Assembly (NCBI GenBank): GCA_963722075.1
Contig: CAVRJM010000001.1
Location: 448,001 to 512,000, forward strand
Direction of reading: 5' to 3'
Source: Candidatus Babeliales bacterium
GTDB lineage: Bacteria > Babelota > Babeliae > Babelales > JANWKD01
DNA length: 64,000 bases
Below the pieces are notes generated by a model, which was not told the origin of the DNA, did no database searches, and saw only the letters and a list, made by a program, of their open reading frames with translations. Each line of letters starts with the position of its first letter. Within the stretch, counting starts at the first letter, position 1. Of this stretch, positions 33,560 to 53,563 are shown piece after piece. A program made the translations under genes and the position numbers.

Positions 33560-34618
33560 ATGATAAAAACTAAACAGTGGTATCCAACGTTATTTTTGTG
33601 TTTATTATTTTTATTTGCTCAGGGACGCAGTATACATCGGCCTATCGATCCACATGACCCTTTTATTACCGTATATTGGGTTCATGATTCAATAAAAAAA
33701 TATTATTTTCGCGATGCTCATTTACCTGAAGCTATTTTTAAACTTTATGAACCGGCATATTTTACCCAACGGCTACTTCCCAGTGGCCCAGTAAATTACC
33801 GCTATGAACCAGAAAAAACAGTTGCCGGAGCCACTCTATCAGCGCTTATTGAAGAACTCATCATTGAAATTAAAGGTCTTAAAAAAAGACAACGTAAAAT
33901 AGTATTTAAAAATTTTAACATGCTTAAAATACGTGATGTTAATAAAAAAAATCATACAGGCCTTTATGTGGTAGAATTTAAGGATTACCCATTCATTTTA
34001 AAACTGTTTGTAGAAACACCCGAAGGAATCGTAAAACCTACCGATAAAGGATTTGAACCTGTTTGCTTTTATTACTTAGCGGGATTAAGCAGACATTTTA
34101 ATGGATTTTCACGCATAAAAAATTTAGAAAATATAAAAAATATTATCCAAGCAGATCAACAATGGGCAACTAAAATCGGGTTTCCACGCAAGTGGTTTTG
34201 GCTGCCCACAAATCCTCAATGGATTACCATTGAAGGAACTAATATTGGAACTCAAAAGAATACCGTTACAACCATCCCCGCAATTTATGGCATCATTTGC
34301 GATAAAATCATTTGGCAAAAGCCCTTTACCTTATATGATCCGCAAGATCGTGAACAGGCTATTGCCTTAAGCAATTTTTTAGGCCAACGTATAGACTCGC
34401 ATATCAATAATTTTGGTATTGAAATACAAACGGGGCATATTGTTCCTATTGATTATGAACATTTTATAACGGCGGTTGGCATTGAAGAAAATTGTATTTG
34501 TAAGAACTATTTTGAATGGTATACCCATTTAACAGGCAAAATGGTAAAACGACTGCTGTTTCAAAATAAAGAGGATCGAAGAAAAGCCCAATATAAGCCA
34601 TTTAAACCAATTATATAA
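33560..34618 (+). CDS. Exported atypical kinase-like protein
   Basis: Signal peptide; FILKL (beta3 Lys), DSHINN (DxHxxN), VPIDYEH (DFG-equivalent). Confidence 0.65.
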   Translation: MIKTKQWYPTLFLCLLFLFAQGRSIHRPIDPHDPFITVYWVHDSIKKYYFRDAHLPEAIFKLYEPAYFTQRLLPSGPVNYRYEPEKTVAGATLSALIEELIIEIKGLKKRQRKIVFKNFNMLKIRDVNKKNHTGLYVVEFKDYPFILKLFVETPEGIVKPTDKGFEPVCFYYLAGLSRHFNGFSRIKNLENIKNIIQADQQWATKIGFPRKWFWLPTNPQWITIEGTNIGTQKNTVTTIPAIYGIICDKIIWQKPFTLYDPQDREQAIALSNFLGQRIDSHINNFGIEIQTGHIVPIDYEHFITAVGIEENCICKNYFEWYTHLTGKMVKRLLFQNKEDRRKAQYKPFKPII

Positions 34619-34622
34619 AAAA

Positions 34623-34650
34623 AAGAAGCACTCTAAATCGAGTGCTTCTT
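34623..34650. terminator. Bidirectional intrinsic terminator
   Basis: AAGAAGCACTC-TAAATC-GAGTGCTTCTT between convergent genes, preceded by an A-tract. Confidence 0.75.
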
Positions 34651-34678
34651 GGTATTAAATTCAGGATACTATTATATA

Positions 34679-35686
34679 TTATATAATTCCACTTTTGAAG
34701 CTATCTACTAATCTTTGTTTTTCCTGTTCATTTTTTTGTTCTTCTTGTCTTTGATGCTCTTTAAGTAACTTCGCTCTTAAAGTGTTGCATTGCCATATTT
34801 CTTCACATTTTTTATCACTTAATAAAACATTCCATGAATTATCACAATTATCTGCAATTGAGACATCAGGCGCGCAAGCTAGAAGCGCATCAGCACATTC
34901 AAAAAAAGACTCTTTTTCATCTTCTTCTTTATCTGGATCTACCATAGCAACTTGTTTAACAAGCTTAAGCAGCGGTGTATCGCCTTTATTATTCTGTATA
35001 TTAACATTCGCCCCAGCTTGCAATAATAATTTCAGCGCTTCTAAGTTTTCAGTTTTAATTGCGTAATGTAATGGTGTATTTCCTCGAAAATCTTGCTTGT
35101 TAACATTTGCTCCCCAGCGAAGTAATGCGGTAACAGCATGCACAACTTTTTGCTTATGGTTATTATTATTAATATCAAAATCAGAGTAGCATTTTTTAGT
35201 AAGAATCCAATGAAGTAATTTATGAGATTTGTTATTATAAACATCTTTATTAACATCGGTAATTTTATATGCTGAATATCGTTTTAAAAATTTTTCTAAA
35301 ACTATAGGCTTTACTACAGATCTAGATCCATAATAATCCCTAAAATAATCCCCTAAAGCCGTTCTTGCAGGAATTTCAGTTATTAATTTTTCAATAGTTT
35401 CTTTTTTTGGCATTAAACTTTCAATATATCTATTGCGTGCTTGGGTAAATATGGCAGGTTTATGTAACTCATGCTCCCAAAGTATTTCAAATCCTTTAGC
35501 TAAATTATAAGCAATCTGTGATCTATTTTTTTGTTGATGCGTTCTTATTAATCCACTATATATTTTTGTAACTTCTGAAAATCTATTTAGACCTTGCTGT
35601 TGGTTTATAAAAGGAATCCAATCAACCCATCCGGCCGTTACGATTTGAAATGTCGTTAAAAAGGCGAATATAGTTATTTTTTTCAT
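34679..35686 (-). CDS. Ankyrin-repeat protein with signal peptide
   Basis: GANVNKQDFRGNTPLHYAI...LLLQAGANVNIQNNKGDTPLL; start MKKITIF at 35686 with GAGG RBS. Confidence 0.92.
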   Translation of the reverse strand: MKKITIFAFLTTFQIVTAGWVDWIPFINQQQGLNRFSEVTKIYSGLIRTHQQKNRSQIAYNLAKGFEILWEHELHKPAIFTQARNRYIESLMPKKETIEKLITEIPARTALGDYFRDYYGSRSVVKPIVLEKFLKRYSAYKITDVNKDVYNNKSHKLLHWILTKKCYSDFDINNNNHKQKVVHAVTALLRWGANVNKQDFRGNTPLHYAIKTENLEALKLLLQAGANVNIQNNKGDTPLLKLVKQVAMVDPDKEEDEKESFFECADALLACAPDVSIADNCDNSWNVLLSDKKCEEIWQCNTLRAKLLKEHQRQEEQKNEQEKQRLVDSFKSGII

Positions 35687-35789
35687 ATTAATACCTCTAT
35701 TTTTCTTAATTATTTTATATATCAACACAACTTACTAATTGTCAAATATGTGCCCTGCTCAATTATAGGTCTTTTCTCCCCACCCTATT

Positions 35790-37205
35790 TTATTCAAACC
35801 ACATAGATTTAGTTAAATCTGTCTGATTTAAAGTGGATTGATTTAAAGAAGAACTGGAACTTGCCGAAGAAGTCGAACTCGATGGTATAAAGTTACCAGG
35901 GATCATACAAAAATCGCTACTATCATTTAAATTGTTAAGTAGATTATTAATCGAATTTTCATAATTCATAATATCAGCACGAATGGTATCTGGATAAGTT
36001 CTACTGGTATATCGTTTAGTTTTTTCTAAAATAGATCTAACGCTATCTCCCTTACTATCCTTTAAGTCAAAATTAAGAATAGGTCTATAAGAAGTATTAA
36101 GCATTACATTTATACATTTTGCGTAATCGACATTCATTCGACTAAATGGATCATTATTTACATGTGCAGACTTATCATCAGCAGCTTGTAGGGTTTCAAT
36201 AGCCTTAATAGCAAATAATAAAGGTGTTTCTTCTTTATTATTTTGAATATTTGCATTAGCCCCTTTTTCTAATAATAATTTTACTGCGGCATGATTTTCA
36301 TGCTTCATTGCATAATGTAATGGCGTATTTCCTCTACCATCCTGTCCATTTACATCCGCTCCTGCTTCAATTAATATTTTTATCGCATTTAAACTATGTT
36401 TATTTTTTAAAGCCATATGCAAAGGCATTCGCTCTCTATAATCCTTCTTATTTACTTCAGCGCCCCATTTTATGAGCGCATAAGTAAATAATTCAAGCTT
36501 TTCTTTTCTTTTAGATAAATTACCGGTTAAAAATTTATTGCTGAATATAAAATGTAACCATGAAGTTGCTTTAAAACTTCTACTTCCCTCAACTAATTGA
36601 TTTTCTCGAGGAACTTCATTTACATTGCCAATTTGATATCGTTTTGGAAAATTATCAATTACTACATCCAAATGCCTTCCTTTTTTTACATTTAATAATG
36701 CATTTAACGCAATCAATACGGGATATTGTCTTTTGTCAGCATTTTCATTTTTTATAGACTGGCATTTGATCAACGCTTCAGTTGGCGATTTTTTTGGCCT
36801 TTTGTTTTTTGATATGTTTTTTCCTGTATATAATGGTGTAGGTTCGTACAATGAACGAACATGGCTATGAGATTTTTCATGAGAGGTTTTTATATCTTCT
36901 TTGATATCGTTTTTTTGCTTATCAACCCATGGAGCATTATAAAACCCTTTTAGTAATTCCCACGCAGGACGACGCCAATTTTTTTTCTCATCATTAATTT
37001 TTTCAGATACATCATCTAGGCTTTGAATAGCTTGATCATTCGATTTAAGTGCAGAATTAATCTGATATTGTTGAGCATACTTAAATGGGCTTGATAATTG
37101 ATAGGCGACTTCTTTCATCCCCAAAAGTGTTATCCAACTATTAGATTGCTCACCATTGACTAGTTGAAATCCTATTAAAACAGTTAAAAATGCTATTTTT
37201 TTCAT
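35790..37205 (-). CDS. Ankyrin-repeat protein with signal peptide and Ser-rich tail
   Basis: GAEVNKKD..ERMPLHMA, GADVNGQDGRGNTPLHYA, GANANIQNNKEETPL; paralog of the adjacent gene. Confidence 0.92.
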   Translation of the reverse strand: MKKIAFLTVLIGFQLVNGEQSNSWITLLGMKEVAYQLSSPFKYAQQYQINSALKSNDQAIQSLDDVSEKINDEKKNWRRPAWELLKGFYNAPWVDKQKNDIKEDIKTSHEKSHSHVRSLYEPTPLYTGKNISKNKRPKKSPTEALIKCQSIKNENADKRQYPVLIALNALLNVKKGRHLDVVIDNFPKRYQIGNVNEVPRENQLVEGSRSFKATSWLHFIFSNKFLTGNLSKRKEKLELFTYALIKWGAEVNKKDYRERMPLHMALKNKHSLNAIKILIEAGADVNGQDGRGNTPLHYAMKHENHAAVKLLLEKGANANIQNNKEETPLLFAIKAIETLQAADDKSAHVNNDPFSRMNVDYAKCINVMLNTSYRPILNFDLKDSKGDSVRSILEKTKRYTSRTYPDTIRADIMNYENSINNLLNNLNDSSDFCMIPGNFIPSSSTSSASSSSSLNQSTLNQTDLTKSMWFE

Positions 37206-37296
37206 ATAAATACCCTCAATTCTATTAGAATTATTTTACTTATACAATACAGCATAATTTACTAATTGTCAAATAAGAACAGGGGTAATTATAGGT

Positions 37297-39306
37297 TTAT
37301 GCAGCGGTAGTTGTGGTAAGCACAGCCATCTGATTAAGTGCTTTGCCAATGTTAGCGTGAAGCTCATTATGTTCAAAAGCATCTAACAGTTCTTTTTTAG
37401 TGGTATCGTAAAATGCTTTATATTTAGTAACTGCCTTTTGACTCATAACCGCTAAAGAATTTAAGCTCGGTTCTTCATGCCCCTGCATATAGCGACCATG
37501 AGCAGAAAAATATGCCCCTTCTTTATTCTTAAAGAAGATTCTAACTAATGAATCTCCCTCTATTTGCACCAGCATGTCATATACCGTTACTGCATTATCA
37601 CCAGCATTGAGGATTTTTGCCTCAACTGAATCAGGATCATTGGCAAGAACAAACTCATTAATAAGATACGATTTATTAAAACAGCTCAGTGACAGCGGCC
37701 AAAAGCCTTTTAATAAATCGATAGCATAATATTGAGGCGCTTCAATCTTTTCAATATAGTGAGATGCGCAGCCAGGTAAAACCGAAATAAAGCGAGGATA
37801 AGGGGTATTATTCGTAGATTTAATAATAAGGGGAACCGATATTACCGGTGATTCTATTAATACATTATAATGATCGGTGATTTGTATGGGTAATTGTAAT
37901 TGCTGTTTTAAGCACGCCAATAACGGACTGATTTTAAATACCGTAGAGCTTTGATAAATCATAAAATGAGTACCATTTATAGGACGTATATTAGGCTCTG
38001 TTTCAATAAATTGCGGACTAATAAGCCGCCATATTTCATTATTAGCTAATTTTTCTACTTCATTAATTTTATCAATACGATTAATCATGCTAAAAAACTT
38101 TTTAATGTTAATATTAAGGAGCAATTTTAATGACCACATATTTGATAGCTGATCTAGTTCATAATAATCAATATTAAACTTATTTTCCTCTACTATTGGT
38201 AAAACAAATCCGCTATTAGTGCAATACGTAGGAATATCGGTACTATTATTAATAATAATAGGAAAATTAAAGCAATCTGGTTTGCCATCAGTGCAATATG
38301 GTTCATCCAAATGAGCTCCTGCACCAAAACAAGTAGAATAACCAAAAACGCCCATAGTAATTTTATTATTCATAAAAAGCAGAAACTTTTTAAATTCACT
38401 CACCGATAAATTACCGATTAATTCAAATTTTTCATTATTATTAGGATAAATCGGCTCCATGTTATACCCATGGCCAACTAAAAATATATCCCAGATATAT
38501 TGTGCCTTACTTCTAAATGGTGAAATAAAGATACGCTCTATTGCCGTTAAAAAATCGCCCTCTGGGCGAGCCGTTGGTTCAAAACTAACAAGCGAACTAT
38601 CACACGGATCATCAACTCGTTCCAATGAGTTCACAGATAACCCTAAAAGTTGTTCATAGTCTTTACCGGCTAACGGAACTTCTTGATTATTATTTTTTTT
38701 TGCCAATTTTTGTATATAGTTCTTTGGTATAAATAGATAATAAAAATCAGTTACTTGATATACATCCCAATCTGCTTCATTAAATTCAAATAAATAAAAA
38801 TTAAAATTAACATACAACTCTTCATTATTATCTTGTGGCAACAGCTTTTCATCTTTGAGTTGTGTTAATGCGTTCTCATTACAAAATTCTTCAGTGATCT
38901 GATCAGATACTAATAATTTAATATCGGAAAAATTAGTCGTTTGTTTTTTAAAAAAATCAGTCCAGATGTTTAATTTATTAAGTATTGCCTCATGATGAGC
39001 CTTTAATTTTGCTTCTTTAGTATTGGGTATTTGAGAGCGTAAAGAGAATTCTTGTTTACGTTCAAGGAAATTTCTCCATATACACGTAGATACAAGCATT
39101 GGAACTGATTTTTGATGAAGTGCCGCAGTCAAAAAAGCAGAAGCAAACAATCGTTGACTTGATGAACCAATACGTTCAACATTTTGACTGTTCAATATCA
39201 ACAAGTTTCTTTGCTCTTTGTTTATTTGAGTTGCATTAATTTTTGTATAAGCTGCTGAAATAAAAAAAATAAAAGAAAAAAAACGTAGGGTTAAATACAT
39301 TTTCAT
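37297..39306 (-). CDS. Exported hypothetical protein with possible clan CD (caspase/C80-like) His-Cys dyad
   Basis: Signal peptide; WDIFLVGHG and YSTCFGAG, with His and Cys 47 residues apart. Confidence 0.6.
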   Translation of the reverse strand: MKMYLTLRFFSFIFFISAAYTKINATQINKEQRNLLILNSQNVERIGSSSQRLFASAFLTAALHQKSVPMLVSTCIWRNFLERKQEFSLRSQIPNTKEAKLKAHHEAILNKLNIWTDFFKKQTTNFSDIKLLVSDQITEEFCNENALTQLKDEKLLPQDNNEELYVNFNFYLFEFNEADWDVYQVTDFYYLFIPKNYIQKLAKKNNNQEVPLAGKDYEQLLGLSVNSLERVDDPCDSSLVSFEPTARPEGDFLTAIERIFISPFRSKAQYIWDIFLVGHGYNMEPIYPNNNEKFELIGNLSVSEFKKFLLFMNNKITMGVFGYSTCFGAGAHLDEPYCTDGKPDCFNFPIIINNSTDIPTYCTNSGFVLPIVEENKFNIDYYELDQLSNMWSLKLLLNINIKKFFSMINRIDKINEVEKLANNEIWRLISPQFIETEPNIRPINGTHFMIYQSSTVFKISPLLACLKQQLQLPIQITDHYNVLIESPVISVPLIIKSTNNTPYPRFISVLPGCASHYIEKIEAPQYYAIDLLKGFWPLSLSCFNKSYLINEFVLANDPDSVEAKILNAGDNAVTVYDMLVQIEGDSLVRIFFKNKEGAYFSAHGRYMQGHEEPSLNSLAVMSQKAVTKYKAFYDTTKKELLDAFEHNELHANIGKALNQMAVLTTTTAA

Positions 39307-39413
39307 GTTATAAGGCCACCATTTAATAATTTAGAAAGAATAAGCATTATTTATTATAATAATACAAAATTTTAATAATACAAACATTTATTGATTTATA
39401 TTTCAAATTGAAT

Positions 39414-39920
39414 TTATGCCACTTCTTTGGTACGCCAATTTTCCATCCAATGAACACAACGCTGTGTTACATGCCTTGTATATGTTTTAAATTTATTCCA
39501 CATATTTGAGTGCGCCAATGCTCGTTCTTTTAAGAATTCCTCATAGGCTGCATAGCGGGTTAAAAAAAGACGTATATCTTTGAGCTGATCTGCTTGGGCA
39601 ACCTTTTCATCTCGTTCATAAAAAGCGTATGGTTTTAGTTGTTGTGCCCATTCCGGATGTTTAATTTCTAAACTATGCAGTGCGGTTTCACGGATTTTTT
39701 GTAGTTCATTTTTTTTATTTGTTTGGGATAGTTTCTCTAATTTATGAATATACCCATTTTTCTTTTCACTCACGCCAAGATAGAATTGTTTGAATTCAGG
39801 GGCATCATCTGGCGCAACTATTCGTTTTATAAACCCATCAACTGTTTTATCAATAAAATCTAGTGAATATAATGGATAGAAAAAAAATAAGAATAATAAA
39901 AAATGTAATTTGGCTTTCAT
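39414..39920 (-). CDS. Hypothetical exported protein directly downstream of dnaA
   Basis: Signal peptide; 12 nt after the dnaA stop; GGGA RBS. Confidence 0.75.
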   Translation of the reverse strand: MKAKLHFLLFLFFFYPLYSLDFIDKTVDGFIKRIVAPDDAPEFKQFYLGVSEKKNGYIHKLEKLSQTNKKNELQKIRETALHSLEIKHPEWAQQLKPYAFYERDEKVAQADQLKDIRLFLTRYAAYEEFLKERALAHSNMWNKFKTYTRHVTQRCVHWMENWRTKEVA

Positions 39921-39932
39921 AATAGTCCCTTC

Positions 39933-41321
39933 TTATCGATTGATTTCTTGTTCCAATCTTTTTATCTCTTTATTGAAGGTTACATCATTTTGTAAGTAAT
40001 TTTCTATCTTATTGATTGCATGAAGTACCGTAGTATGATCTTTCCTCCCCAAAAAAAGGCCTATTTCATGCAATGATTTGTTTGTTAATTTTTTCATAAG
40101 ATACATAGCAAGCTGCCTCACTAAAGATAATTTTTTATCACGACCTTGAGAACGCAGATCTTGTAAAGAATAGGAATAATGTTTTGTTAAACATTTAATT
40201 ATTCTATTAAAATCTACTATTATTTCTTTAGCTTCATTATTGCGCATTAATAATTTTTTACTGAGTTCTATGGTAATCGGTTGATTGGTAAGCGCCGCAT
40301 ATGCCGTAATGCGAATCAAGGCCCCTTCTAATTCACGAATATTAGACATCACCCGTGCTGCAATAAAATAGAGCACGTCATCCGATATTTCTTGATTTTG
40401 CATTTCAAGTTTTCTTTTTAAAATCGCTATTTTGGTTTCAGTCGTAGGTACCTGAATATCGGTTACCAATCCCCATTCAAAGCGAGAACGTAATCGTTCA
40501 GCAAGACCGTTAATACAGGCAGGATCTGAATCACTTGAAAATACAATTTGTTTATGTGATTCATAGAGCATATTAAAAATATGAAAAAATGCTTCTTGGG
40601 TTTGTTCTTTATTAGAAATAAATTGTACATCGTCAATAAGTAAGACATCAATCTCAGTATATTTTTCTTTAAATTGAGAAACTTTATCAAATCGAATAGC
40701 ATTTATAAATTCATTAACAAAATGATCAGCGGTTTGATACAAAATTTCAGTTTTTTTATTGCGCAATTTAATTTCATTACCAATAGCATGTAATAGATGT
40801 GTTTTACCAAGACCTGATCCGCCATAAATGAATAGCGGGTTATACAGTTTTCCGATTTTTTCAGTTACGGCATGAGCTGCTGCATAGGCCAATTGATTGC
40901 TGGGGCCTACCACAAAACTATCAAATTGATAATTTTTATTAATATAACTTTTTTGTTTTTCATAATGCTTTTTTAACGAACTATTTTTTTTTATCGTAAT
41001 ACTAAAATCACGTGTAGCAACTGCTGGTATAATAGCAGGCTCTGTACCTGCTGCCATTTTCTCATCAGGATAATGATTATCAAGAAAAATAACACTTATT
41101 TTATCAACATTTAATAATCTGCTCAGATGTTGCTGAAATAAATTAAGATAATTAGATTTGATCCATTCTTTAATGAATAGGTTTGGTGCTTTAAGATACA
41201 CAATTTTTTCAAATGCATCCCATTGTGACAAGCAGACCGCTTTGAACCAAGTATGAACTACATGGCTCCCCGCTTCTTGAGCAACAATTTTTAAAAATTC
41301 TTCCCAAATTGAATCAATCAC
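39933..41321 (-). CDS. dnaA: Chromosomal replication initiator DnaA
   Basis: FDSFVVGPSN, YNPLFIYGGSGLGKTHLL, LLIDDVQF, RLRSRFEWGL, NIRELEGAL, RQLAMYL, GRKDHTTV. Confidence 0.98.
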   Translation of the reverse strand: MIDSIWEEFLKIVAQEAGSHVVHTWFKAVCLSQWDAFEKIVYLKAPNLFIKEWIKSNYLNLFQQHLSRLLNVDKISVIFLDNHYPDEKMAAGTEPAIIPAVATRDFSITIKKNSSLKKHYEKQKSYINKNYQFDSFVVGPSNQLAYAAAHAVTEKIGKLYNPLFIYGGSGLGKTHLLHAIGNEIKLRNKKTEILYQTADHFVNEFINAIRFDKVSQFKEKYTEIDVLLIDDVQFISNKEQTQEAFFHIFNMLYESHKQIVFSSDSDPACINGLAERLRSRFEWGLVTDIQVPTTETKIAILKRKLEMQNQEISDDVLYFIAARVMSNIRELEGALIRITAYAALTNQPITIELSKKLLMRNNEAKEIIVDFNRIIKCLTKHYSYSLQDLRSQGRDKKLSLVRQLAMYLMKKLTNKSLHEIGLFLGRKDHTTVLHAINKIENYLQNDVTFNKEIKRLEQEINR

Positions 41322-42734: not shown

Positions 42735-43112
42735 CGTCGTTGCGATCTTATTGGATTTCTCCAAGGCCACTTGGAACTCGGGCAAACGCACCAAATGTTA
42801 CGCGATAAATTAAAATGAAGAATATTAATTTGGCCTTGAGCCGATTACACTAAAAGCTTCGACGCCCAGGTCCCCCACAACGCCTTGTCCACCGAAACCT
42901 ATAGGTGAAGGCTGGATCGGGACCGATGACGATCGAAAAAAAAGTACGTCGTTGCGAGCTTGTCGAAGCAATCCAGGTTAAATTAAATGATACCAAGTTA
43001 TAGAAGGCCAATAAAGTTGTGTTAAATTATTAAACAATTCAAAAATTTCTTCATATAAAAATAACAAATAATGTTAATAAATACTGGATTGCTTCGACAA
43101 GCTCGCAACGAC
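42735..43112. repeat. Dense patch of family A and B palindromes, including an inverted family A pair with a 107-bp spacer
   Basis: Partial CGTCGTTGCGA at 42735; B-like copies at 42841-42870 and 42882-42917; A copies at 42947-42976 (identical to 8195-8224) and 43084-43112 (inverted). Confidence 0.85.
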
Positions 43113-43197
43113 ATACATTCGTAAATTTACATCATCATGCAAAAATTCAGCATCCATTAGTGAATTATATTTAAGGTATAAAAGTTCTAAATACCAA

Positions 43198-44823
43198 CTA
43201 ACTAGACGGAAGTAAGAAATTATAATTAAAATACATGCGTTGAATCGTATGCAGTTTTTGAGTAACGCTCATTGAAGCATCTTCCAAATGAGCAATATCT
43301 TCAAGTATCATAATTTGCTCGTCAATATTCATTTGAGAAGTATGTTTTTTAAATTGTTCAAGCCAGTAATGGCAATACCCTTGATCAATTAATGAAACGG
43401 CAGATACATCACTTAAATATTTATTGTAAATAATATCTAAATTTCGTAATGCTTTGCGTAATGGCTCATACGTATTTTTTTGTAGCATAATGTGTACAAA
43501 AAGTTTCTTAGCAAGGGAATACGTACCATATAAAACTAACGCTGATGGTAATATGGCAGCTATTTCAAAATTAAATTTATTAGCATTAAATTGCGTTTCT
43601 CCTTCTAATGCTATTTTACTTCCCATTAATAATGATGCTTGAAATAACATATAACATAAAACTCCCATCTTTTTTACCTGAGGAAACAGTTCTGCAATTT
43701 CGGAAGCTTTTTTAGTAATTATTTCCAACCTTGCTATAGCAACATTAAACCGTTCAATAGATTTTTTATCTCCAGTAATCCATCTTAGAGCACTGGCACC
43801 ATACGAATCATCTTTCACATATGAATCTAGTTCTATCTTTAATTCTTCAACATCACTTTGTTTTTTATCTATAGCTTGAACAATATCATTTAATTCATTC
43901 ATAATAAATTCAATATTGCCAGTCTTAACCTCTTTAATAATCCCTTCAATTTCTTCAGAAGAATATGGTAAATTGTTGGTTTCTATATATGAGCGCACCT
44001 GAAGTTCTAATAAATTTCCACAAGATTGAACACCTTTTTTAGTTATTACCGGATCACGATCACGTCGCAAAAGCGCCTTTAGTGATTTTACAATCGGCGC
44101 GGATATGTGCTCATCATAATACTTTTTAACCGCATCAAAAGCCATATCAGACCAGTTTTTTAAATTATTTTTATTTTGATGAATAAAATAACCCATTCCT
44201 AATGAGCTTGTTACCAGAAGAAAATAGGCAATCCAATTCCGTTGAAAATGATTAGGTTTACTACAATGCGCGCAGGAATATAACGCATTTTTTTTGTAAT
44301 TTTTTATCCATAATTCAATGCGTTTAAGCCGCTCTTCAACCACACCACTTTGTGCGGTTTTATTGCTTATAACAGTATAACGAAATAAACAGGATTCAAG
44401 AGCATCAATCATAGCATCTGCTAGTTCAGGAGAATAAGTCGCCGTTTGAATGTAGTGTTTAAAGAGCGCTAAATAATAGGCATTGTGCTCTTGCTCTTGT
44501 TGTAAGTACTGTAAATATTCATCAATTTTGCGCCATTCCTTTTTACGGTAAATCCATTTGCTAGGATCTTTTGAAAGAAAATAGCTAAACGGCATTAATT
44601 GCTGTTTTTTCCAGTAATGGGTGTTTAATAGGAACTGATGTAATACCTCAATAAGGATAGGGCATAATTGCTCCATTTGATCAAGCACCTTGTTAAACAC
44701 TACTTTATTTTCATATTCCTTAATAATACGAGCTGTTTTTTCATTTTCTAATAGCAATAAAGAATCGGTACCATTTATACTTAAAAAGACTAGTAAAAGT
44801 ACACTAAAAATATAATTAACCAT
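43198..44823 (-). CDS. NCA2/DGS1-like protein with signal peptide
   Basis: HFQRNWIAY...YYDEHISAPI, ANKFNFEIAAILP, KLHTIQRMY resemble conserved NCA2/DGS1 blocks (recognised from memory); start ATG 44823. Confidence 0.68.
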   Translation of the reverse strand: MVNYIFSVLLLVFLSINGTDSLLLLENEKTARIIKEYENKVVFNKVLDQMEQLCPILIEVLHQFLLNTHYWKKQQLMPFSYFLSKDPSKWIYRKKEWRKIDEYLQYLQQEQEHNAYYLALFKHYIQTATYSPELADAMIDALESCLFRYTVISNKTAQSGVVEERLKRIELWIKNYKKNALYSCAHCSKPNHFQRNWIAYFLLVTSSLGMGYFIHQNKNNLKNWSDMAFDAVKKYYDEHISAPIVKSLKALLRRDRDPVITKKGVQSCGNLLELQVRSYIETNNLPYSSEEIEGIIKEVKTGNIEFIMNELNDIVQAIDKKQSDVEELKIELDSYVKDDSYGASALRWITGDKKSIERFNVAIARLEIITKKASEIAELFPQVKKMGVLCYMLFQASLLMGSKIALEGETQFNANKFNFEIAAILPSALVLYGTYSLAKKLFVHIMLQKNTYEPLRKALRNLDIIYNKYLSDVSAVSLIDQGYCHYWLEQFKKHTSQMNIDEQIMILEDIAHLEDASMSVTQKLHTIQRMYFNYNFLLPSS

Positions 44824-44972: not shown

Positions 44973-45320
44973 ATGTTAATGTCTCAAGAAAAGCAAGCCG
45001 TACCTGTTTTTAAGCGATATGCCATTTTTCAGACTGGCGGCAAACAATATCAAGCAATAGAAGGTAAAACAGTAGCCATTGAAAAACTTGAGGGGAATCA
45101 AGGCGACACGGTAGAATTTACAGATGTATTGTTACGTAAAACAAATGATGCCGATATTCAAATTGGTCAACCATTCTTGAAAAACGCTATTAAAGCAACC
45201 ATTGTTAAGCAGATGCGCGGACCAAAAATAGTTGTATTTAAATTCAAACGTCGCAAAAAGTCACGCGTTAAAAAAGGACATCGTCAATCCATTACCGTAG
45301 TACGAATTGAAGCAATCTAA
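44973..45320 (+). CDS. rplU: 50S ribosomal protein L21
   Basis: YAIFQTGGKQY, IGQPF, KIVVFKFKRRK, KGHRQ. Confidence 0.97.
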   Translation: MLMSQEKQAVPVFKRYAIFQTGGKQYQAIEGKTVAIEKLEGNQGDTVEFTDVLLRKTNDADIQIGQPFLKNAIKATIVKQMRGPKIVVFKFKRRKKSRVKKGHRQSITVVRIEAI

Positions 45321-52773: not shown

Positions 52774-53563
52774 ATGGTTACTAAAAGAAGATTGGATCAA
52801 GTAATTCTTGAACGATACCCACAATTCTCGAGAAATTACATACAAAGCCTTATAATGCAAGAAAAGGTAACGGTGAATGATAAAACCATTACCAAACCGG
52901 GAATCTTAATCAAAGAAGATGCGGTTATTACACTTGATACCCATGAACCTAAATATGTTTCTCGTGCAGGTTTTAAATTAGAAAAAGCATTAGAACATTT
53001 TAAGATCGATGTACATAATAAAATTGTTCTTGATGCAGGGCTTTCTACTGGCGGGTTTACCGATTGCTTATTACAATCTGGCGCCGCTAAAATCTATGGC
53101 ATTGACGTTGGCTATGGGCAAGTGCATGAAAAGATTAGAAATGATCCGCGCGTAATTGTAATGGAACGCACTAATTTGCGCCATTTGGAATCCCTGCCAG
53201 AAAAGGTAGATGTGGTTACCTTAGATCTTTCTTTTATTTCCGTACTTAAGGTAATCCCTGCCATTAGTAACGTTTTAAAAGAACATGGACAACTGGTTAT
53301 TCTTATTAAGCCACAATTTGAAGCAGCTAAGGGAGAAGTATCTAAAGGGGGCATTATTAAAGGACCCTGCTATTCATGAAAAGGTGGTGAATCATGTTAT
53401 AAAAGGGGTCACTGAATATGGGTTTAATTTTCAAGGAGTTATCGAATCCCCCATTCTGGGCACAGAGGGAAATAAGGAGTTTTTAGCCTATTTTAGGTAT
53501 AATTATTATTTTTTTATTGACAAATTGGATATAATTGATATATTAAGAACACCACTTATTTAA
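52774..53563 (+). pseudogene. tlyA: TlyA-family rRNA methyltransferase, frameshifted near 53360
   Basis: S4 domain, YVSRAGFKL, DAGLSTGGFTD, DVGYGQ, DLSFIS, LIKPQFE; continues in the +1 frame as KDPAIH...SPILGTEGNKEFL. Confidence 0.88.

Follow-up and report, generated by a model that had tools for sequence, protein, structure and literature searches.

A gene in the window, which is a stretch of 64,000 nucleotides from contig CAVRJM010000001.1 of a Candidatus Babeliales bacterium, encodes a protein (P0001) that by sequence comparison is a true, full-length homologue of the eukaryotic mitochondrial proteins Nca2 and DGS1. It belongs to a bacterial branch of this known eukaryotic family, and the branch is real and new. 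No report of a bacterial NCA2/DGS1, or of NCA2 in Dependentiae, was found in the literature searched, which lay largely outside the subscription journals. Automated Pfam matches for these proteins are already present in databases, and the source names read 'hypothetical'. Nca2/DGS1 has been described as a eukaryotic mitochondrial family without an agreed mechanism, and no solved structure of it was found here.

The gene and its surroundings

The P0001 gene is divergent from rplU and lies upstream of amiC and dnaA. Its open reading frame is intronless and free of internal stop codons. An in-frame TTG is found 16 codons upstream of the ATG, and homologues begin at the position equivalent to the ATG. 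The contig measures 1.42 Mb and the source genome 1.47 Mb (99% complete). An assembly artefact or eukaryotic contamination can be excluded, as the intronless gene is flanked by rplU and amiC/dnaA on a contig of 1.42 Mb, its GC3 (0.24) is close to that of rpoB (0.26), and the synteny of the gene across families refutes contamination. A family profile gave one match among the 4207 ORFs of the source genome, hence no paralogue of P0001 there. The promoter scan stayed at chance level, with 10 found and 13.8 expected.

Features of the P0001 gene and its divergent neighbour (positions in the window; res, residues of P0001)
Feature	Position	Strand	Basis or remark
Whole gene, Nca2/DGS1 homologue P0001	43198..44823	-	541 aa; ATG 44823 to stop 43198
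Predicted Sec signal peptide, res 1-20, without lipobox	44764..44823	-	Best 10-mer hydropathy 3.3
N-terminal helical bundle, res 28-190, YW and P..W motifs	44254..44742	-	pLDDT mostly >90; hhalign
P.HF.RNW..Y motif and weakly hydrophobic segment 1, res 190-215	44179..44256	-	Residue conservation
Amphipathic helix, res 218-252, holding H239..P243	44068..44172	-	Hydrophobic moment up to 1.4; model helix
Middle helical domain, res 253-415	43579..44067	-	Variable in bacteria
Hydrophobic segment 2, res 419-437, then basic residues	43513..43569	-	P426 in 38/44 bacterial and 10/10 eukaryotic rows
C-terminal four-helix bundle, res 441-537, K...I.RMY..Y.FL end	43213..43503	-	Only generic four-helix-bundle matches
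rplU (ribosomal L21), divergent neighbour	44973..45320	+	Pfam L21; context marker, functional link not claimed

The dnaA gene is found at 39933-41321, and the cumulative GC skew declines across the window until it almost levels off near 50 kb. On these two grounds the P0001 gene may lie near the replication origin. Just downstream of it is an inverted pair of a REP-like palindromic repeat (42941-42986 and 43074-43119). The repeat is present six times in the window, against 0 expected, and 52 times in the genome, and its copies often face each other in pairs separated by 140-360 nt. Beyond dnaA, the region 33560-39920 holds genes with leader-like starts, among them two that encode ankyrin proteins of 471 and 349 aa and three, of 669, 352, and 168 aa, that have no Pfam match. 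At 52774-53563 a methyltransferase gene, which we take to be TlyA-like, is seemingly split into overlapping ORFs of 201 and 92 aa, suggesting a frameshift or an assembly error.

Homology to eukaryotic Nca2/DGS1

The initial annotation had proposed NCA2/DGS1 homology from the order of sequence blocks, and Pfam, a profile-profile comparison and the ESM Atlas agree on this assignment. The Pfam NCA2 family, against which it had suggested to compare the protein, was the sole family matched by P0001 (PF08637, 63.1 bits with the cut-off at 20.6, E=3.3e-17), and the match comes in two stretches. A profile of 136 bacterial-type sequences aligned by hhalign with one of 10 eukaryotic sequences gave a probability of 100 and E=1.4e-55 over 434 columns, and this alignment takes in an N-terminal region missing from the Pfam model. 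Using P0001 as phmmer query against 1.84 billion representative sequences we obtained 219 matches, 150 of them listed, and at least 10 eukaryotic sequences are among the matches listed. The names given by the sources mark four of the 10 as eukaryotic (Planoprotostelium, Willaertia, Andalucia Nca2, and Diacronema via a cluster member), and the other six were assigned by tree position. Because these 10 rows came from a bacterial query they are biased in its favour, whereas Pfam and the ESM Atlas provide checks that do not depend on it.

In the ESM Atlas features, eukaryotic NCA2 clusters rank first for P0001 (0.95, with a low recognition value). They also rank first (0.96) for P0103, a family member named by its source a hypothetical protein of Ca. 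Chromulinivorax destructor (Pfam E=5.7e-10, above the cut-off), and here the cluster 'Protein DGS1, mitochondrial' was found at 0.94. The top structure match of P0103 in the same resource was a plant NCA2 cluster with TM 0.52 over 383 residues (next 0.30), a score below the naming bar of the tool and obtained with models of modest confidence. The AlphaFold model of P0001 is all-helical with a mean pLDDT of 88.6 and a pTM of 0.70; a probably exported branch of about 100 diverse genomes provides the sequence depth for so confident a model. Compared without superposition, the model of Andalucia Nca2 (pLDDT 69) has a helix order like that of P0001.

All eight close relatives of P0001 passed the PF08637 cut-off, while 30 more distant Babelota copies were divided into 16 above it, 2 below it and 12 without a match. 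The identity between bacterial and eukaryotic copies is about 16-24%. A sequence search of solved structures gave a best E of 0.005, to an unrelated protein, and Foldseek found no match at E<=0.001 in the PDB and viral libraries. The best VIA-align result (Z 9.6 over 92 residues) was to generic four-helix bundles. All of these structure searches leave room for a known fold. An identity of the family with mitofilin was rejected, as no Mitofilin (PF09731) match was found in P0001 or in 38 family members.

Protein anatomy

The initial annotation had named an N-terminal hydrophobic stretch, QRNW..Y, HI..P, AN.FNF.IAA.LP and a terminal K...I.RMY..Y.FL, and all of these blocks were located. QRNW..Y occupies residues 194-200 of P0001, AN.FNF.IAA.LP residues 414-426, and the terminal block reads K523...I527.RMY..Y534.FL537. 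The proposed signal peptide was recovered as a leader-like hydrophobic start by a hydropathy proxy. The two segments that had been called transmembrane (the first at residues 197-215) are only marginally hydrophobic, with Kyte-Doolittle 19-mer values of 1.27 and 1.38 in P0001. Peaks occur at the same columns in bacteria and eukaryotes and are marginal in both, with medians for segments 1 and 2 of 1.08 and 1.62 in bacteria and 0.94 and 1.95 in eukaryotes. On a crudely applied insertion scale, the bacterial means of the two segments were +2.4 and +2.8; the anchor of HtrA scored -2.1, and the helices of TrkH ranged from -2.4 to +2.8.

Conservation was assessed in 44 bacterial and 10 eukaryotic rows. 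Bacteria and eukaryotes alike keep the two end bundles and the residues flanking each hydrophobic segment, and W71, P87, P190, R195, W197, P243, P426, G482, and D509 are common to the two sets. The N-terminal bundle lies outside the Pfam model, yet it is common to bacterial and eukaryotic copies, W71 being present in 42/44 and 8/10 rows, respectively. P190 was found in 40/44 bacterial and 10/10 eukaryotic rows, R195 in 37/44 and 9/10, and W197 in 34/44 and 10/10. G482 is invariant (44/44 and 10/10), and K523 is found in 42/44 bacterial rows. The eukaryotic motif L.IQ.Q..K..D, with its L, Q and D each in 10/10 rows at columns 391, 393, and 409, is not kept in bacteria, where the commonest residue at these columns is found in just 9/44, 7/44, and 10/44 rows. 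As this middle-domain motif is not conserved in Babelota, we class the bacterial branch as a family variant and not as a functional orthologue. The branch thereby tells a core that is kept apart from a middle motif that is dispensable.

Lysine and arginine are more frequent after segment 2 than before it in 27/44 bacterial rows, less frequent in 6 and tied in 11; they are more frequent after it in 9/10 eukaryotic rows. Segment 1 has no charge bias in bacteria (14 vs. 17 of 44). A hydrophobic leader, judged by the hydropathy proxy and not by SignalP, was found in 41/44 bacterial but only 1/10 eukaryotic rows, and a lipobox in 1/44 bacterial copies. The same leader test is positive for 559 of 1020 ORFs of the source genome (55%), and the leader thus marks export from the cytoplasm only, a property common in this genome.

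The bacterial copy evolves fast, judged from its identity of 41% to a same-genus copy compared to 87% for the matched part of RpoB. Across Babelota families the identity is 18-25%, and the proteins range from about 420 to 880 aa, with a middle domain that varies by hundreds of residues. dN was smaller than dS in four of four pairs, with dS near saturation.

Distribution of the gene

The phylum set consisted of 261 Babelota genomes from one order. A bacterial profile (E<=0.001) had matches in 106 of them, six being weak (E above 1e-5), while PF08637 alone matched in 64/261. The strong matches came from 100 genomes in 10 of 21 families, and the gene is absent from the other 11. It is found throughout families f1 (4/4), f5 (14/14), f12 (10/10), and f16 (2/2), nearly throughout f3 (15/16) and f18 (11/12), and in 43/80 genomes of the mixed family f21; f17 has none in 35 genomes and f2 one weak match in 41. 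For f18 and f20, four proteins tested had no Pfam match, and their membership is given by the profile (E 2e-34 to 3e-13) and shared motifs. Tandem duplicates of the gene were found in two f21 genera (L071, L072, L073). In one genus the second copies branch separately, and a weaker leader was seen in the two of them examined.

Among non-Babelota genomes, small samples in which Chlamydiota, Rickettsiales and Legionellales were not targeted, PF08637 was found in 0/140, and likewise in 0/14 controls. A sensitive profile found a full member in 0/80 non-Babelota genomes, with one short motif-only match, and in 0/38 genomes of the class of a translocase-bearing genome. Viral contigs held no relative with either alignment, and plasmids gave no match. 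The non-Babelota locus L172 (G391:C94:16231-16413) holds a 175-aa ORF ending in an HF.R.W-like motif and the first hydrophobic segment (22.8 bits, 58 positions). Its segment looks like a tail anchor and may reflect chance or a shared membrane-targeting motif. The sources of relatives of P0001 give their names as Ca. Dependentiae or Ca. Babeliales. From these names, together with the ATP/ADP translocases, the secretins and the ankyrin proteins near the gene, we assign the source genome to Babelota (Dependentiae/TM6). A FastTree of 187 rows included 133 that were unlabelled; 4 of these fell with eukaryotes, 2 were unresolved, and the rest were nearest to Babelota families, which is a weak assignment.

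Descent within Babelota and direction of transfer

The gene was probably present in the common ancestor of the sampled Babelota, descended vertically and was lost repeatedly. This is suggested by its occurrence on both sides of the RpoB tree, family-congruent gene trees, conserved neighbours and empty sites. The RpoB FastTree (56 Babelota and 4 distant outgroups) divides the phylum into two halves (99, 98) with carriers on both, and nine changes are needed to explain gene presence. In the gene tree of 54 rows, 6/8 multi-row families each occupied one branch side, and 8/8 did so when 15 rows (long branches, second paralogues, close duplicates) were dropped. The reduced tree grouped f18 with f20 (99/96), which are on the same RpoB side, and f1 with f16 (86/91).

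Gene order was compared in the window and 40 regions from positive genomes chosen to span the families. The context is constant within clades and consists of housekeeping genes, and the copy number is mostly single. The rplU gene is near in 17/41 regions from 6 families, with mutS on the opposite side in 14. In f5, ybeY is found in 5/5 regions, phosphomannomutase and serS are present in 6/6 f18/f20 regions, and f21 has mnmA-pgsA in 10/12 regions and ssb in 10/12. Empty sites were found where mutS lies beside rplU in 4 of 29 rplU loci without the gene (f8 and f19; one with an unrelated ORF between them), and where pgsA runs on to ssb in 4 of 5 f21 genomes without the gene. Among 169 ORFs at the 29 loci, no hidden diverged copy was found beside rplU in unmatched genomes. 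In f21 (L063, L066, L067, L071, L072) a small unannotated leader-bearing protein of 116-148 aa is encoded between pgsA and the gene, and a similar-sized small gene remains where the Nca2-like gene was lost.

The initial annotation had expected a phylogeny with eukaryotic members to inform on the origin of the family. The probable ancestry of the gene in sampled Babelota is such information, but the tree does not fix the direction of transfer. The eukaryotes form one side of a branch (87/96), and their attachment among Babelota families is without support (26/5). Word-index homologue searches with eukaryotic queries each returned one protein, the query, and plant and fungal sequences are therefore absent from the trees. 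Most likely the gene moved from host to bacterium, probably once, from an early protist. This direction follows from parsimony, with a family found across eukaryotic supergroups and in one host-dependent bacterial phylum.

The reverse, a separate question of origin, is that the family arose in stem Babelota and passed to a eukaryote ancestor. The gene is on both sides of the Babelota RpoB root, diversity is greater among the bacterial copies than among the 10 from eukaryotes, and the free tree places eukaryotes among Babelota families, although without support. However, an attachment of eukaryotes at the Babelota root was not rejected in the AU test (p=0.37), nor was Babelota beside the amoebozoan (p=0.07), and no outgroup was available for rooting. 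Faster rates explain the greater bacterial diversity, the family occurs in plants, fungi, Discoba, Amoebozoa and haptophytes, and Babelota need eukaryotic hosts. We therefore consider the reverse transfer quite improbable.

A proposed secreted mimic at the host mitochondrion

Babelota are described as strictly intracellular bacteria of protists (PMC12172432). Ca. Chromulinivorax destructor (Chromulinavorax destructans), the species named as the source of P0103, is reported to replicate enclosed by an expanded, intact host mitochondrion, to have no lipid biosynthesis and apparently to shed outer-membrane vesicles (PMC6561590).

The reading that we favour, at an even balance of probability and in line with the candidate mitochondria-targeting effector of the initial annotation, is that the Nca2/DGS1 homologue would act as a secreted mimic on the outer membrane of host mitochondria. 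The protein would be exported by Sec via its leader, its two segments would lack the hydrophobicity needed for a reliable stop in the bacterial inner membrane, and it would leave the cell through a secretin (type II-like) system or in outer-membrane vesicles. It would then insert into the outer membrane of the host mitochondrion, its end bundles both facing the cytosol like the two ends of plant DGS1. Since the end bundles and membrane flanks are kept and the middle motif is lost, it might act as a tether or competitor at the host TOM40/MIC60 lipid-transfer contact rather than as a replacement of the host protein. A speculative outcome is that mitochondrial membrane, lipid and ATP could be drawn to a bacterium that makes little of its own.

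Several observations count for the mimic. The leader is frequent in bacterial rows, above the genomic background, and rare in eukaryotic ones, the gene is restricted to Babelota among the genomes searched, and it evolves fast. The basic residues after segment 2, as in eukaryotes, are unsuited to a periplasmic C-terminus in the inner membrane. A cleaved leader on a two-pass inner-membrane protein would give such a C-terminus, against the positive-inside rule, and this modestly favours full export. The source genome encodes two secretins (the pair G000:C1:1154637-1159968, with ORFs of 941 and 800 aa that lie some 5 kb from each other) and three ATP/ADP-translocase ORFs, which also count for it. 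Similar secretin pairs were found in 5/5 Babelota genomes tested, including two without the Nca2-like gene, and type II is reported as the sole secretion system detected in Babela massiliensis (PMC4378268). Finally, the mitochondrion-wrapped Chromulinivorax encodes P0103. Counting against the mimic, about half of Babelota proteins have leaders (44% of proteins as given in PMC6561590), the setting is housekeeping and mostly single copy, unlike that of expanded effector families, and the families lacking the gene are still presumed parasites. The motif best conserved in eukaryotes is lost, the charge bias is found at segment 2 only, some true inner-membrane helices are as weak on the crude scale (TrkH), and mitochondrial wrapping has been described for one species only, the severe cell remodelling having been absent from the amoeba hosts (PMC6561590).

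The main rival of the secreted mimic, a possible though less than probable one, is that the protein stays in the bacterial envelope (periplasm, inner or outer membrane), where it would move scavenged host lipid between the two bacterial membranes or join them, much as DGS1 does between those of the mitochondrion. For delivery to the periplasm a Sec leader is enough, and the housekeeping context, the single copy and dN below dS in all four pairs, with dS near saturation, are consistent with this role. So are lipid-related neighbours in two clades: in 10/12 f21 regions a CDP-alcohol phosphatidyltransferase gene and then one small gene precede it, and in 2/5 f5 regions it comes after an MlaD-domain gene. 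However, the neighbours change wholly by clade (rplU/mutS, ybeY, serS, pgsA/ssb) with no constant lipid-gene partner, and many lineages have lost the gene cleanly while keeping the neighbours. The charge bias of segment 2 fits the eukaryotic topology. A Mitofilin match was found in 0/5 Babelota genomes tested, and the known DGS1 partner is thus not bacterially encoded.

Secretion combined with a drift to a different host membrane or function (vacuole, ER contact), with the fold alone kept, is unlikely. The low identity across families, the size variation of the middle domain and the tandem paralogues in two f21 genera are in line with such a drift, whereas the residues in common with eukaryotes are kept over the whole length, which suggests that a membrane or partner has been kept as well. 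The name of the Pfam family suggests that the protein regulates the ATP synthase of the bacterium itself, but this role was rejected as very improbable: yeast Nca2p is implicated in Atp6 expression according to PMC12315970 and Babelota have F-type subunit a, but subunit a is present in 252/261 genomes compared to 106 with this gene, and no atp gene was identified among the recurring neighbours.

The family offers a named, testable candidate for how Chromulinavorax destructans expands the host mitochondrion around itself without damage. That the Babelota ancestor probably had the gene would point to a very old contact of the phylum with host mitochondria. A fuller scenario, tentative and rather doubtful, is that the Babelota ancestor captured, from an early eukaryote, a MICOS-linked protein of the mitochondrial outer membrane that became an effector for mitochondrial wrapping and feeding. 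The Chromulinivorax copy would then cause engulfment, and the stripped bacterial form would reveal the parts needed for tethering and lipid transfer.

Comparison with known systems

The bacterial proteins resemble Arabidopsis DGS1 (DGD1 SUPPRESSOR1) in family, block order, two hydrophobic segments and basic residues after the second. They differ in having a Sec-type leader and in the loss of the middle-domain motif, in a comparison made without direct alignment of plant sequences. Reviews describe plant DGS1 as a protein of the outer membrane that partners with TOM40 and MIC60 and has effects on cristae and lipids. Protist Nca2 (Andalucia, Planoprotostelium, Willaertia), related to Saccharomyces Nca2p, aligns with the bacterial proteins over the full length and has a similar helix order, but 9/10 eukaryotic rows are without a leader and the Babelota copies are not tied to ATP synthase presence. 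Andalucia Nca2 has been suggested to be MICOS-linked (PMC7050145), and the trypanosome NCA2 is given as mitochondrial (PMC9981465).

With the proteins by which other bacteria act on mitochondria the likeness is limited to the proposed target organelle, and no homology is claimed. A Listeria effector action is reportedly linked to Mic60, and Legionella MitF and LncP act on mitochondrial membranes.

A distantly mitofilin-like CDS of Chromulinavorax destructans has been proposed as a candidate for mitochondrial remodelling (PMC6561590). DGS1 is a partner of mitofilin (MIC60), but with P0103 the Pfam Mitofilin family gave no match at E<=0.01. NCA2 is mentioned nowhere in the text of this paper or of its preprint (10.1101/379388).

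In Babela massiliensis many eukaryote-like secreted proteins have been described, among them ankyrin, F-box, and Ulp1-like proteins and ubiquitin hydrolases, and nine supplementary files of that paper contain no NCA2 term (PMC4378268). These proteins and P0001 have in common a signal peptide and a eukaryotic domain in a parasite. The Babela proteins are expanded or lineage-specific families, whereas the Nca2-like gene is single-copy, syntenic, probably ancestral, and encodes a homologue of an organelle membrane protein.
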